Assembly (NCBI RefSeq): GCF_003334815.1
Contig: NZ_QOWO01000013.1
From: Escherichia coli
GTDB taxonomy: Bacteria > Pseudomonadota > Gammaproteobacteria > Enterobacterales > Enterobacteriaceae
Reading direction: 5' to 3' (one strand)
DNA: 64,000 nucleotides
Below are positions 1-4,315 of the stretch, piece after piece. The notes under the pieces were generated by a model. That model searched no databases, was not told where the DNA came from, and saw only the letters and a program-made list of their open reading frames with translations. The position numbers were made by a program, and so were the translations under genes. Every line of letters begins with the position of its first letter. Positions within the stretch are counted from its first letter, which is position 1.

Positions 1-1326
1 GCCGGACTATTTACCGGTATCTACGCTAACCAGTCCGGCCCGTGGACCAACAACGTCGCGCCAGGCAAAAACATCTCCACTATGGGGCGCTACTTTAAGG
101 ATGCCGGCTATCACACCTGTTACATCGGCAAATGGCATCTCGACGGTCATGACTATTTCGGCACTGGCGAGTGTCCGCCGGAGTGGGACGCTGATTACTG
201 GTTCGATGGGGCGAACTATCTTAGCGAACTGACGGAAAAAGAGATTAGCCTGTGGCGCAATGGCCTAAACAGCGTCGAAGATTTACAGGCGAACCATATC
301 GACGAAACCTTCACCTGGGCGCATCGTATCAGCAATCGGGCGGTGGATTTTCTGCAACAGCCTGCGCGCGCAGACGAGCCTTTCCTGATGGTGGTTTCGT
401 ATGATGAGCCGCATCACCCGTTCACCTGTCCGGTGGAGTATTTAGAGAAATACGCTGATTTTTACTACGAGCTGGGCGAGAAAGCACAGGATGACCTGGC
501 TAACAAACCGGAACATCACCGCTTATGGGCGCAGGCGATGCCATCGCCAGTCGGTGATGACGGGCTTTATCACCATCCGCTCTATTTTGCCTGTAATGAC
601 TTTGTTGATGACCAAATCGGACGGGTCATCAATGCCTTAACGCCAGAGCAACGTGAAAATACGTGGGTTATTTATACCTCCGATCACGGCGAAATGATGG
701 GCGCACATAAGCTGATCAGTAAAGGGGCGGCGATGTATGACGACATCACCCGCATTCCGCTGATCATCCGTTCGCCGCAAGGGGAGCGGCGACAGGTCGA
801 TACGCCAGTCAGTCATATCGATTTACTGCCGACAATGATGGCGCTGGCAGATATTGAAAAACCAGAGATTCTGCCGGGGGAAAATATCCTTGCCGTGAAA
901 GAGCCACGCGGCGTGATGGTGGAATTTAACCGCTACGAGATTGAGCATGACAGCTTTGGCGGTTTTATTCCGGTGCGTTGCTGGGTGACGGATGACTTTA
1001 AACTGGTACTCAACCTCTTCACCAGTGATGAACTTTACGATCGCCGTAATGACCCAAATGAAATGCATAACCTGATCGATGATATCCGTTTTGCAGACGT
1101 TCGCAGCAAAATGCATGACGCCTTATTGGATTACATGGACAAAATTCGCGATCCGTTCCGCAGTTACCAATGGAGTCTGCGTCCGTGGCGTAAAGATGCA
1201 CGGCCGCGCTGGATGGGGGCGTTTCGTCCACGTCCACAAGATGGCTATTCGCCAGTTGTACGCGACTATGACACCGGCCTACCGACACAAGGGGTGAAGG
1301 TGGAGGAGAAAAAACAGAAGTTCTGA
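1..1326 (+). CDS. yidJ: Sulfatase-family protein, 5' end truncated by window start
   Basis: Frame 1 is open from position 1 through the listed ORF (82..1326); translation matches sulfatase family; gene neighbourhood yidI-yidH-yidG-yidF-emrD. Confidence 0.85.
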   Translation, partial: AGLFTGIYANQSGPWTNNVAPGKNISTMGRYFKDAGYHTCYIGKWHLDGHDYFGTGECPPEWDADYWFDGANYLSELTEKEISLWRNGLNSVEDLQANHIDETFTWAHRISNRAVDFLQQPARADEPFLMVVSYDEPHHPFTCPVEYLEKYADFYYELGEKAQDDLANKPEHHRLWAQAMPSPVGDDGLYHHPLYFACNDFVDDQIGRVINALTPEQRENTWVIYTSDHGEMMGAHKLISKGAAMYDDITRIPLIIRSPQGERRQVDTPVSHIDLLPTMMALADIEKPEILPGENILAVKEPRGVMVEFNRYEIEHDSFGGFIPVRCWVTDDFKLVLNLFTSDELYDRRNDPNEMHNLIDDIRFADVRSKMHDALLDYMDKIRDPFRSYQWSLRPWRKDARPRWMGAFRPRPQDGYSPVVRDYDTGLPTQGVKVEEKKQKF

Positions 1327-1330
1327 CGAT

Positions 1331-1361
1331 AATGCCCGCTGATGATCACCCGGCGGGCATT
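1331..1361. terminator. Inverted repeat (aatgcccgc...gcgggcatt) between convergent yidJ and yidI
   Basis: 9-bp perfect stems read directly from sequence; lies in the 46-nt gap between the two stop codons. Confidence 0.45.
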
Positions 1362-1372
1362 ATTCAGGCTGC

Positions 1373-1822
1373 TTAAACCAGTGAACCGCCGGTCAGGAAG
1401 GAAAAGATAAGGAATATCAGCAAAATGCTGCACACGATGCCGATACCAAAAAGCAAGGTATGGAAAGCCAGCGTCCCGCCGCCAAAAACCAGCGCGCCGC
1501 GAATGCCCCAGCGATTTTCCTTACGCATACCGCCAATAAATGCGCAAAGTAGCGCAGCAATGGCCAGTGCGATACCGCTTTGATTGAGGATTTTATCGAC
1601 ATCTACGTCCTCTTTTTTCTCCACGGTGGTAATTTTTTCGCCTTTTATTCCGGCGAGAAGACCTCTTTTAATTTCAGCCGTTTTGTCCGCCACGATGCTT
1701 TCAAACGTTGGCGGTGGTGCGGAGAAAGGGCCGAATGAAAAGTGGATAATCCCCATCATTAAAGCGATGGCACCGAACAGCATGCCCAATGAACTGATTT
1801 TATTTTGAGCTATGATACCCAT
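1373..1822 (-). CDS. yidI: Small inner-membrane protein, 149 aa
   Basis: Internal Met of the 185-aa ORF gives 149 aa (recalled K-12 length); GGAGG Shine-Dalgarno immediately upstream on minus strand; hydrophobic segments. Confidence 0.75.
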   Translation of the reverse strand: MGIIAQNKISSLGMLFGAIALMMGIIHFSFGPFSAPPPTFESIVADKTAEIKRGLLAGIKGEKITTVEKKEDVDVDKILNQSGIALAIAALLCAFIGGMRKENRWGIRGALVFGGGTLAFHTLLFGIGIVCSILLIFLIFSFLTGGSLV

Positions 1823-1929
1823 CTGACCTCCTTGTAGCGGATGGCAAAAGCATATCAGGAAACGGGCGGACGAAATTCTTAAAAAAACCGCTAAAGGTAG
1901 AGCGTTAGTGAAATTGCAAAGGAGCAACA

Positions 1930-2277
1930 ATGAAAATTTCCCGCCTCGGAGAAGCGCCTGATTACCGCTTCTCGCTGGCTAATGAGCGTACTTTTCTGGC
2001 GTGGATCCGTACTGCACTAGGATTTCTGGCGGCGGGGGTTGGGCTTGATCAACTTGCGCCAGATTTCGCCACGCCCGTCATTCGCGAACTGCTGGCGTTG
2101 TTGTTGTGTCTGTTTTCCGGCGGGTTAGCGATGTATGGCTACTTGCGCTGGTTACGCAATGAAAAAGCGATGCGTCTGAAAGAGGACCTGCCCTACACCA
2201 ACAGCTTATTAATCATTAGCTTAATATTGATGGTCGTGGCGGTGATCGTTATGGGACTGGTGTTGTATGCCGGATAG
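1930..2277 (+). CDS. yidH: DUF202-type small membrane protein, 115 aa
   Basis: ORF track; length and sequence match recalled YidH. Confidence 0.8.
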   Translation: MKISRLGEAPDYRFSLANERTFLAWIRTALGFLAAGVGLDQLAPDFATPVIRELLALLLCLFSGGLAMYGYLRWLRNEKAMRLKEDLPYTNSLLIISLILMVVAVIVMGLVLYAG

Positions 2278-2629
2278 CCGCAAAGCCAGACGCATTGCCG
2301 ACCCAGGACTGCAGCCGGAGCGCACATCACTGGCGTGGTTTCGTACCATGCTGGGCTACGGCGCGTTGATGGCGTTGGCTATCAAACACAACTGGCACCA
2401 GGCGGGCATGTTATTCTGGATTTCGATTGGCATTCTCGCCATCGTGGCGCTGATCCTCTGGCACTACACCCGTAATCGCAATTTAATGGATGTCACGAAT
2501 AGCGATTTTTCCCAATTTCACGTAGTCCGTGACAAATTTTTGATCTCCCTCGCGGTGTTATCTCTCGCAATACTGTTTGCTGTAACGCATATACATCAAC
2601 TTATCGTATTTATTGAGAGAGTCGCATGA
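2267..2629 (+). CDS. yidG: Small membrane protein, 120 aa, overlaps yidH by 11 nt
   Basis: ORF track; overlapping start suggests translational coupling. Confidence 0.8.
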   Translation: MPDSRKARRIADPGLQPERTSLAWFRTMLGYGALMALAIKHNWHQAGMLFWISIGILAIVALILWHYTRNRNLMDVTNSDFSQFHVVRDKFLISLAVLSLAILFAVTHIHQLIVFIERVA

Positions 2630-3123
2630 CAGGAAGTCAGGTCATTGATGCTGAAGAGGACAGGCATAAACTGGTTGTAGAGTACAAGGATGCTCTGCAA
2701 CCTGCCGATTTTTATCACAATTTCAAACAGCGGGGCATCCGCTCCGTACAGCTCATTCCCTATCTTGAATTTGATGACCGGGGCGATCTGACGGCCGCTT
2801 CGGTGACAGCAGAGCTGTGGGGGAAATTTTTAATTGCCCTGTTCGAGTGTTGGGTGCGGGCAGATATCAGTCGTATCTCGATTGAGCTTTTTGACGCCAC
2901 CTTACAAAAATGGTGTGGCAGCGAAAACCCGCAACCGCGCTGTGACTGCCAGGCGTGCGACTGGCATCGCCTGTGCCCGCACGCTCGGCAGGAGACGCCA
3001 GACAGCGTGCTTTGTGCGGGCTATCAGGCGTTTTATTCTTACTCCGCACCGCATATGCGGGTGATGCGTGATCTGATAAAGCAGCATCGTTCTCCCATGG
3101 AGCTGATGACGATGCTGCGGTGA
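2626..3123 (+). CDS. yidF: Cys-rich protein resembling the C-terminal half of an AslB-like anaerobic sulfatase-maturating enzyme
   Basis: 165 aa; CDCQACDWHRLCP...CAGYQAFYSYSAPHMRVM motif; ATGA overlap with yidG stop. Confidence 0.8.
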   Translation: MTGSQVIDAEEDRHKLVVEYKDALQPADFYHNFKQRGIRSVQLIPYLEFDDRGDLTAASVTAELWGKFLIALFECWVRADISRISIELFDATLQKWCGSENPQPRCDCQACDWHRLCPHARQETPDSVLCAGYQAFYSYSAPHMRVMRDLIKQHRSPMELMTMLR

Positions 3124-3130
3124 CGTGCGC

Positions 3131-4315
3131 TTAAACGGGCTGCCCCTGATGCGACATCCGCGTCGCCAGCGGCAGCCAGCACAGCACGATCAACAATCCC
3201 ATTAAGGTCATCAACAACCCCAGGCTGCCCTGACCGGTTTGCGGCAACATCGCAGAGAGCGACGCCAGCACGCCGGAACCAATGTTTTGCAGACCGCCGA
3301 CCAGCGCGCCAGCCGTGCCCGCCAGGAAGGGGAACGGCTCCATCGCGCCGCTGGTCGCCAGCGGAAACAGCATCCCGGCACCGAAAAAGAACAGCGCGGC
3401 GGGAACGAGCAGCGTCCAGACATTCATCACGCCAAACCAGTCGGGGATCCACATCAGCAAGCCAGCCAGCAGGCAGCAGATAACCGACTGCCACATTAAC
3501 GTGGAGAAGCGTTTATTGGGACGTCCGGCAAACCATGCGCCAAAAAACGCTGCCGGAATCGGCAGAATAAACAAAATACTGACCGTCATACTGCTCAGCC
3601 CTAACACCGCGCCCATCAGCACGCCGGAGCAGGCTTCAAAGGCGGCAATCCCGGCCAGACCGCCAATCAGCATCAGCAAATAACAGTTAAAACCGCTGTT
3701 ACCGAAAAGCGTTTTATAACTGGTAAGCAGGCGCGTGCGCGGTGCATCGACCGGACGCGTTTCCGGCATCCAGCGGGCCATACTGAAGGTCACACCAGCA
3801 CAAAGAACCAACAAAAAGAGATAACAGGCGCGCCAGTTCCACATCGTATCCAGCAGACCGCCGATTAGCGGTGCGAGCAACGGACTGACGAGAATCCCCA
3901 TGTTTAACAGGCTGTTAGCATGGCGCAACTGTGTCCGTTCATATAAATCTCGCGGTAAAGTACGCGCCATTACGCCGCCAACGCCGGTGCCCATCCCCTG
4001 CATCGCGCTGGCGGCAATCAACACCGTCAAACTGGAGGTCGTGACCGCGACCAGCGTTGCCAGCATAAAAATGGACATTCCGACGAGGATCACCGGTCGG
4101 CGGCCCACGCGGTCGGAAATCGGGCCATAAAACAGCTGTGAGACACCGTAAGTCAGCAGATAAGCGCCCATTACGCTCTGCACCGCCCCTTCACGGACGT
4201 TGAGATCGCGCGCCATATCGGCAATAGCTGGAATATAAATGGCTTGCGCCATCTGACCGACGGCCACGAGTAATACCAACATCAATAACAAATTGACGTT
4301 TCTTTGCCTTTTCAT
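3131..4315 (-). CDS. emrD: MFS multidrug efflux transporter EmrD
   Basis: 394 aa from MKRQRNVNLL...; the ORF track's MIMKRQ start is 2 codons longer. Confidence 0.9.
   Translation of the reverse strand: MKRQRNVNLLLMLVLLVAVGQMAQAIYIPAIADMARDLNVREGAVQSVMGAYLLTYGVSQLFYGPISDRVGRRPVILVGMSIFMLATLVAVTTSSLTVLIAASAMQGMGTGVGGVMARTLPRDLYERTQLRHANSLLNMGILVSPLLAPLIGGLLDTMWNWRACYLFLLVLCAGVTFSMARWMPETRPVDAPRTRLLTSYKTLFGNSGFNCYLLMLIGGLAGIAAFEACSGVLMGAVLGLSSMTVSILFILPIPAAFFGAWFAGRPNKRFSTLMWQSVICCLLAGLLMWIPDWFGVMNVWTLLVPAALFFFGAGMLFPLATSGAMEPFPFLAGTAGALVGGLQNIGSGVLASLSAMLPQTGQGSLGLLMTLMGLLIVLCWLPLATRMSHQGQPV

Follow-up and report, generated by a model that had tools for sequence, protein, structure and literature searches.

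YidF of Escherichia coli as a putative non-catalytic derivative of an anaerobic sulfatase-maturating enzyme retained beside the DUF202 genes yidH and yidG

Introduction

Does a maturase-like protein that is far too short to be a maturase still serve a purpose, and if so, with which partner? The question is raised by yidF, a gene near the left end of a 64-kb stretch of Escherichia coli DNA (the window; contig NZ_QOWO01000013.1, all gene coordinates below being window positions), of which positions 1-3600 are 100% identical to E. coli K-12 MG1655. K-12 YidF is already known from public annotation as a short protein resembling the anaerobic sulfatase-maturating enzymes (anSMEs), and older comparative work on sulfatase-modifying enzymes reportedly notes it as such. 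The initial annotation of the window described it as half a maturase, lying next to the sulfatase gene yidJ, and left the choice between a domain remnant and a stand-alone accessory module. The adjacency does not hold, as yidI, yidH, and yidG lie between the two genes. In the reading that we favor, with a probability of roughly 0.6, YidF is a non-catalytic anSME derivative with one iron-sulfur (Fe-S) cluster, which is a partner of the DUF202 membrane proteins YidH and YidG and is under selection. Literature searches for yidF with a sulfatase or for yidF alone returned nothing relevant, and none was found on its in-situ origin, second deletion, recurrent reduction, selection, or DUF202 linkage, which is a weak negative as subscription journals were thinly covered. 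The "YidF" of one JBC paper is a typographical error for YdiF.

What YidF has kept and what it has lost

The proposed descent of YidF from an AslB-like anSME is borne out by profile, sequence, and structure comparisons. YidF matches the anSME profile of NCBIfam, TIGR03942, with E=5e-21 and 75.1 bits (residues 17-101 on profile positions 160-245 of 363), without reaching the curated cutoff of 349.45 bits. Among solved structures, the sole meaningful sequence match found with phmmer is the anSME known as anSMEcpe (4K36, E=5e-4). This match comes in two pieces, YidF 27-95 on anSMEcpe 175-246 and YidF 105-152 on 314-370. The profile check had a mixed outcome: the anSME profile was matched, but a Pfam scan of YidF gave no domain at E<=0.001, neither Radical_SAM (PF04055) nor SPASM (PF13186), and the NCBIfam SPASM profile TIGR04085 did not match either. 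The best Pfam match, TolB_like, has E=1.8 and was set aside as chance. The segments of the gene are as follows.

yidF, 2626..3123, + strand: 165 amino acids; non-catalytic and reduced in size, descended from a full-length anSME gene
yidF codons 1-7 (MTGSQVI), 2626..2646, + strand: retained ancestral N-terminus; next in full-length orthologues comes the radical-SAM CxxxCxxC motif, which E. coli yidF has lost
yidF codons 16-98, 2671..2919, + strand: homologous to anSME residues ~156-242 (last beta/alpha barrel units; anSMEcpe 175-246)
yidF codons 99-128, 2920..3009, + strand: Cys-rich loop and site of the internal deletion (full-length ~243-300 gone)
yidF C108 (2947-2949), C111 (2956-2958), and C117 (2974-2976), + strand: aligned to anSMEcpe C317, C320, and C326
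yidF codons 129-165, 3010..3120, + strand: tail; C130 (3013-3015) aligned to anSMEcpe C348

Compared with full-length proteins, YidF has undergone two large losses. The first covers residues ~8-155, that is, the radical-SAM (S-adenosylmethionine) cluster motif and the SAM-binding core, and no CxxxCxxC motif is found in YidF, as the initial annotation had noted. The second covers ~243-300, a block of ~55-65 residues, and is accompanied by a further 4-residue deletion. In anSMEcpe, auxiliary cluster I is bound by C255, C261, C276, and C330 and auxiliary cluster II by C317, C320, C326, and C348 (PMC5715301). None of the four cluster-I ligands is left in YidF (three fall in the lost block and Cys330 in the 4-residue deletion), whereas in the alignment to anSMEcpe all four cluster-II ligands are left as C108, C111, C117, and C130. 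With the CxxxCxxC motif, the SAM-binding core, and all cluster-I ligands gone, YidF is predicted to be incapable of radical-SAM formylglycine formation. Of the C-terminal Cys cluster reported earlier, the cluster-II cysteines and CAGYQAFYSYSAPHMRVM at residues 130-147 stand, but the cluster-I part does not. Likewise, "half a maturase" is apt in that YidF is a reduced anSME, and inapt in that it holds no intact SPASM half, has two internal losses, and matches no SPASM profile.

The cysteines of YidF are found at positions 75, 97, 106, 108, 111, 117, and 130. Cys106 (2941-2943) varies by strain, with RCDC in K-12 YidF and Arg in place of the cysteine (RRDC or RRGC) in all other alleles that were examined from E. 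coli, and it is not likely to ligate a metal.

An AlphaFold2 model of YidF, built from a 36-sequence alignment, has a mean predicted local distance difference test score (pLDDT) of 81.6 and a predicted template modeling score of 0.79. It is confident at residues 12-100 and 130-165, with a pLDDT of >90 for codons 16-98. In a Foldseek search of the Protein Data Bank with this model, only anSMEcpe entries matched significantly (E ~5e-6, query-normalized template modeling score 0.62-0.65), so that the structure prediction asked for by the initial annotation came out in favor of an anSME origin. The kept pieces correspond to the last strand-helix barrel units, the cluster-II loop, and the C-terminal helices, which presumably pack against one another in the parent enzyme.

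Nothing in the neighborhood supplies the missing N-terminal part, as had been stated before. When the 64-kb window was searched by tblastn with four full-length orthologues, residues 1-125 had no match, and a blastn search of 5426 E. coli genomes with the N-terminal 480 nucleotides of a Citrobacter yidF found only aslB, weakly. The 6 kb to the left of the window hold yidK (solute:sodium symporter), yidL (AraC-type regulator), and two pseudogenes, and no maturase gene, which would have spoken against the earlier interpretation. A candidate remnant upstream of the yidF ATG was also rejected: the tblastn match ran 8-9 codons into yidG, and the N-terminus is better explained by a match of the start region of yidF itself, described below.

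An origin in place from a full-length maturase gene

A scan of one genome per species yielded 326 loci encoding relatives of YidF. In ~15 genera of Enterobacteriaceae a protein of 370-374 amino acids is encoded directly after yidH-yidG, with the N-terminus MTGC[HQ]VMAKPASSRCNLxCRYCFY, including the CxxxCxxC motif. Holders of this full-length yidF include Atlantibacter, Pluralibacter, Kluyvera, Kosakonia, Trabulsiella, Yokenella, Buttiauxella, Dryocola, and one Leclercia, as well as Citrobacter werkmanii, C. braakii, C. youngae, C. sedlakii, and C. amalonaticus. The full-length orthologues score 458-484 bits on TIGR03942, above the cutoff, and 59-62 bits on TIGR04085. Most of these loci have yidJ on their upstream side and emrD on their downstream side.

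The full-length genes share with E. coli the ATGA in which the yidG stop and the yidF start overlap, and this overlap is kept in nearly all lineages. Moreover, the first 20 nucleotides of E. coli yidF are identical to those of the full-length genes (MTGCQVM...) at 19 of 20 positions. By these alignments, yidF is identified as an in-place descendant of a full-length anSME gene, deleted internally and in frame, with the ancestral start kept. The initial annotation had assigned the space of the missing half to yidG and yidH. As yidH and yidG precede the full-length yidF in the same order and with the same ATGA, they are therefore ancestral neighbors and not displacers of the missing half.

Several otherwise full-length copies are broken (loci L028, L033, L035, and L052). 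Frameshifts occur in Pluralibacter gergoviae and Kluyvera genomosp. 3, the CxxxCxxC motif is damaged in strain RIT691 (CNLNSRCFY), and in one Trabulsiella strain the 3' end of yidF is gone along with part of emrD. In an Atlantibacter-like metagenome-assembled genome (L002, 7955-7957), two N bases in yidF result in separate calls of 162 and 204 amino acids, which is an assembly artifact and not a split gene. A contig labeled Chryseobacterium sp. 18061 (L017) carries yidJ, yidH, yidG, yidF, and emrD with 84-87% protein identity to E. coli and is almost certainly mislabeled or contaminating Enterobacteriaceae DNA.

Recurrent reduction among the Enterobacteriaceae

Reduced forms of 162-178 amino acids are found in Escherichia, Citrobacter, Klebsiella, Leclercia, Silvania, and Superficieibacter. 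Their identity to K-12 YidF is 82-96% within E. coli, E. albertii, and E. marmotae, ~50% in several Citrobacter, and 42-47% in Klebsiella, Leclercia, Silvania, and Superficieibacter; on TIGR03942 the reduced forms other than YidF score 78-102 bits. A profile search of 1.8 billion representatives also found graded intermediates, namely in Kosakonia (363 amino acids, motif damaged), Shimwellia (315), Kluyvera (311 and 220), and [Enterobacter] lignolyticus (249), down to Klebsiella aerogenes (162). Among 29 reduced forms examined, none has CxxxCxxC and 26 keep CxxCx5C...C. Three of the cluster-II cysteines are invariant and one is nearly so, at an overall identity of ~45-55%, and the tail block AGYQAFYSYSAPHMRVMRDLIKQHRSPMELMTMLR is almost unchanged across genera.

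The number of origins was assessed with a neighbor-joining tree on the shared ~150 residues (100 bootstraps). Monophyly of all reduced forms was obtained in only 6 of the 100 bootstraps, and a single shared origin was rejected on that account. The reduced forms of Leclercia and Silvania group with the full-length Leclercia protein (86/100), while those of Escherichia, Citrobacter, Klebsiella, and Superficieibacter come together (94/100). Deletion boundaries differ from group to group, with nesting inside the Leclercia group, where a form of 213 amino acids is without residues 14-112, 130-142, and 247-293 and a form of 168 amino acids without 9-155 and 238-295. Reduction has thus apparently taken place at least twice independently, stepwise and always in frame, and has converged on the same kept pieces.

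Selection on yidF and its retention

Rates of non-synonymous and synonymous substitution (dN and dS) were estimated by the method of Nei and Gojobori, and non-synonymous and synonymous counts were compared by Fisher tests, which gave p<1e-9 in all pairs so tested. Among the three Escherichia species (E. coli, E. albertii, and E. marmotae) dN/dS of yidF is 0.147-0.169 at a dS of 0.53-0.71, as in emrD. Within the gene, dN/dS is 0.16 for codons 16-98 and 0.02-0.10 for the tail (dS 0.57-1.27, with synonymous sites saturating), and constraint is weakest at the deletion junction in codons 1-15 (0.47). In the Cys-loop segment 2920-3009 the dS among Escherichia species is 1.56, compared with 0.45-0.75 elsewhere in yidF. 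Two reduced Citrobacter alleles gave a dN/dS of 0.144 and the Leclercia group 0.27; the value is 0.07-0.15 for full-length yidF genes. The neighboring genes, taken as controls, gave 0.03 for emrD, 0.01-0.03 for yidH (very strong constraint), 0.07-0.12 for yidG, and 0.14-0.20 for yidI.

The gene is present in 5421 of 5426 complete E. coli genomes and is annotated as an intact coding sequence in 29 of 30 E. coli records sampled across the identity range. About 305 of the 5426 genomes cover <80% of window positions 1-3600, yet yidF is covered fully in all 5421; therefore, part of the yidJ side is variable within E. coli. Taken together, the amino acid sequence of yidF appears to be under relaxed yet clear purifying selection, and the reduced gene is fixed in Escherichia. 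With dN/dS values of 0.15-0.27 and frames that are intact in the sampled E. coli records, with the one exception, and across genera, yidF therefore fails the test of a pseudogene, for which neutrality and broken frames are expected. As to the earlier alternative of a remnant or a stand-alone module, both descriptions hold in part: YidF is a remnant by origin and, as selection indicates, is kept as a stand-alone protein.

The constant neighbors are yidH and yidG, not yidJ

The genes around yidF in the window are arranged as follows.

yidJ, 1..1326, + strand: 3' 1326 nucleotides of the gene for a cytoplasmic Cys-type sulfatase of 497 amino acids; cut by the left window edge
yidI, 1373..1822, - strand: small membrane protein; variable insert
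yidH, 1930..2277, + strand: DUF202 membrane protein of 115 amino acids
yidG, 2267..2629, + strand: second DUF202 membrane protein, 120 amino acids; 11-nucleotide overlap with yidH
emrD, 3131..4315, - strand: convergent neighbor whose stop lies 7 nucleotides from the yidF stop; used as substitution-rate control

The active-site motif of YidJ, C52-T-P-A-R, is encoded just outside the window, to the left. As the full protein opens with the mature sulfatase fold at its very N-terminus and has a Cys-type motif, it is therefore a cytoplasmic Cys-type sulfatase. A scan of positions 1300-3400 for promoters and terminators found no promoter-like site, and the terminator-like sites were weak and inside genes only. 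The insert yidI is found in K-12, O157:H7, E. albertii, E. marmotae, and C. youngae. Some other E. coli strains, in which the yidJ-yidH gap is ~60 nucleotides (L094, L095, and L097, 745-805), lack it, as do most other genera.

In every Enterobacteriaceae locus examined, yidH and yidG lie directly 5' of yidF. By contrast, the tie between yidJ and yidF on which the initial annotation was built turned out to be weak, as the reduced yidF persists in genomes that have lost yidJ, namely those of E. albertii, E. marmotae, Citrobacter, Klebsiella, and Leclercia (L003, L084-L088, and L090-L092). Only in E. coli and Superficieibacter is the reduced yidF accompanied by yidJ, which is intact there and of the Cys type. 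For the full-length yidF, yidJ is nearby in 23 loci and missing in 12. In E. albertii (L090, 2527-2727) yidL is down to a 66-amino-acid remnant and yidK and yidJ are deleted, with yidI-yidH-yidG-yidF intact. In Superficieibacter electus (L093, 5983-6003) GTGA stands in place of ATGA and the gene caller took an ATG 18 nucleotides downstream; the in-frame GTG start would keep the coupling to yidG.

The association is not confined to the Enterobacteriaceae. Vibrio litoralis (L042, 5980-12368) clusters an anSME, two DUF202 genes, an AraC regulator, a solute:sodium symporter, and a sulfatase with 74% identity to YidJ, in a different gene order. As these six functions are clustered there, the DUF202 pair must have joined the module long ago. 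In the explanation that we favor, the full-length anSME gene belonged to an old module of yidL, yidK, yidJ, yidH, yidG, and yidF. Marinomonas flavescens (L038) also has the module, and its anSME bears a C-terminal CPCGSGEKFKRCC tail.

On the function of these DUF202 proteins, the sole experimental hint that was found, and a weak one, is an overexpression screen for d-alanine export, in which YidH came through three rounds and YidG through the first round only, and YidH proved negative when its transport activity was assayed directly (PMC10299036).

A proposed role for YidF and the alternatives

In the mechanism that we propose, YidF would be made through translational coupling from yidG and would fold as a compact unit, a small pseudoenzyme. 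It may hold one [4Fe-4S] cluster via C108, C111, C117, and C130, and it could serve as a cytoplasmic redox or scaffolding subunit for the YidH/YidG membrane pair. It would then take no direct part in formylglycine formation on YidJ, whose Cys52 would in E. coli be matured by other means, that is, by AslB, YdeM, or an aerobic system, which has reportedly been proposed.

Several observations weigh against this proposal. The case for the partnership consists of gene order, the ATGA overlap, and co-retention, and the Cys loop (100-130) is modeled at low confidence, as is expected without the cluster. Three Citrobacter clusters have Tyr for the third cluster-II cysteine. The 94% clade of short forms may partly be due to long-branch attraction. 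The protein changes 5-10 times faster than the products of yidH or emrD, and within E. coli the ratio of non-synonymous to synonymous polymorphism in yidF is 0.21-0.35, which indicates relaxed constraint. Loss is tolerated at least occasionally, as underlined by one frameshifted allele in E. coli T309.Ta3 (L094, 1501-2002; a 4-bp GCTC duplication near codon 22), which was the sole broken one in the 30 records sampled. Finally, yidJ is absent from 7 of 9 reduced lineages versus 12 of 35 full-length loci, which also fits decay after loss of the substrate.

The last three points are at the same time arguments for plain decay, in which yidF was eroded once the maturase had become dispensable and is now a non-functional open reading frame still to be removed. 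The spectrum of degraded forms, which includes frameshifted or motif-broken full-length copies, would fit such a course as well. We nevertheless regard it as unlikely. Three separate reduced lineages show dN/dS values of 0.15-0.27 at normal dS, with far lower values in the tail; the frame survives multiple independent deletions; the cluster-II cysteines are retained in proteins that have otherwise diverged to about half identity; and all but five of the complete E. coli genomes keep the gene.

Slightly less probable still is that selection acts on translation itself or on the avoidance of harm and not on the function of the product, either because translation of yidF couples or stabilizes the yidHG message or because a toxic misfolded peptide must be avoided. 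The near-universal ATGA overlap with yidG and the weak constraint at the deletion junction are in line with this, and a terminator named yidF has been used in a terminator study, so that transcription appears to cross the gene. But an open frame as such needs no conservation of amino acids, whereas the tail protein is almost invariant at a substantial dS and specific metal-ligand cysteines are conserved, and a clean deletion, which would end any toxicity, is almost never seen.

Least probable is a role of YidF as an accessory in YidJ maturation, as electron donor or sulfatase dock for AslB or YdeM: the reduced yidF does stand alongside an intact Cys-type yidJ in E. coli and Superficieibacter, E. 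coli has aslB, and auxiliary cluster II is said to lie outermost on the electron path proposed for anSMEcpe, but the reduced gene is under selection in lineages of five taxa without yidJ (those listed above), its invariant neighbors are yidH-yidG and not the sulfatase, and full-length anSMEs, to our knowledge, need no such helper.

The proposal of a non-catalytic YidF retained with YidH and YidG can be taken one step further. The C-terminal third of the anSME lineage may have a second, radical-independent function tied to YidH/YidG, to which enterobacteria have repeatedly stripped the enzyme. We offer this as a tentative idea, which is a good deal less probable than the proposal it extends. 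Such a function might be that of a redox or gating subunit, with one cluster, in a channel for small anions or solutes. If this is true, bacterial DUF202 proteins would gain their first link to a function, and a half-SPASM Fe-S protein would be known in free-standing form.

For annotation, the label "radical SAM protein" that pipelines give to YidF is misleading, and it gives no basis for inferring maturation of YidJ through YidF. The question of which enzyme converts Cys52 of YidJ in E. coli is thereby sharpened. The comparison across genera also amounts to a clean natural test of which portion of a radical-SAM/SPASM enzyme is able to exist by itself: in-frame loss has repeatedly removed the same catalytic parts, and selection continues to act on the auxiliary-cluster-II site and the tail. 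Furthermore, YidH and YidG, which are very conserved DUF202 proteins, are now tied to a sulfatase/maturase module that reaches Vibrio.

Comparison with known systems

The closest relatives of YidF are the anSMEs (AslB, AtsB, ChuR, and anSMEcpe; TIGR03942), with which it shares homology, orthology through the full-length forms, and the type of locus, beside a Cys-type sulfatase. It also has their cysteine pattern for auxiliary cluster II and their C-terminal motif A-P-x-M-x-x-M...R-x-P, and its AlphaFold2 model superposes on anSMEcpe only. Unlike them, YidF is without the CxxxCxxC cluster, the SAM-binding core, and auxiliary cluster I; it has 165 amino acids instead of ~370, is no radical-SAM catalyst, and persists without a sulfatase neighbor. 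The two other anSME homologues of K-12, YdeM and AslB, belong to the same family as YidF. We take each of them to be paired with a sulfatase gene (aslB with aslA, ydeM with ydeN) and to keep the N-terminal radical-SAM region, and we know of no linkage of aslB or ydeM to DUF202 genes.

With the SPASM/twitch domains (PF13186, TIGR04085) YidF has in common the CxxCx5C...C that ligates the second auxiliary [4Fe-4S] cluster, but it matches neither profile, and the first half of the seven-Cys motif is deleted together with the beta-hairpin. We know of no SPASM domain that occurs as a free-standing protein. Pseudoenzymes, which are dead paralogues with a scaffolding or regulatory role, resemble YidF in the loss of catalytic residues, in purifying selection, and in the recurrent independent loss of the same motifs. 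They differ in that YidF shows large in-frame deletions rather than point substitutions, and its new role is a proposal. YidF belongs to the anSME lineage by descent, and by their defining tests it is neither an anSME nor a radical-SAM protein nor a SPASM domain. It is best filed as a pseudoenzyme derivative, and is best described as working like nothing yet characterized.

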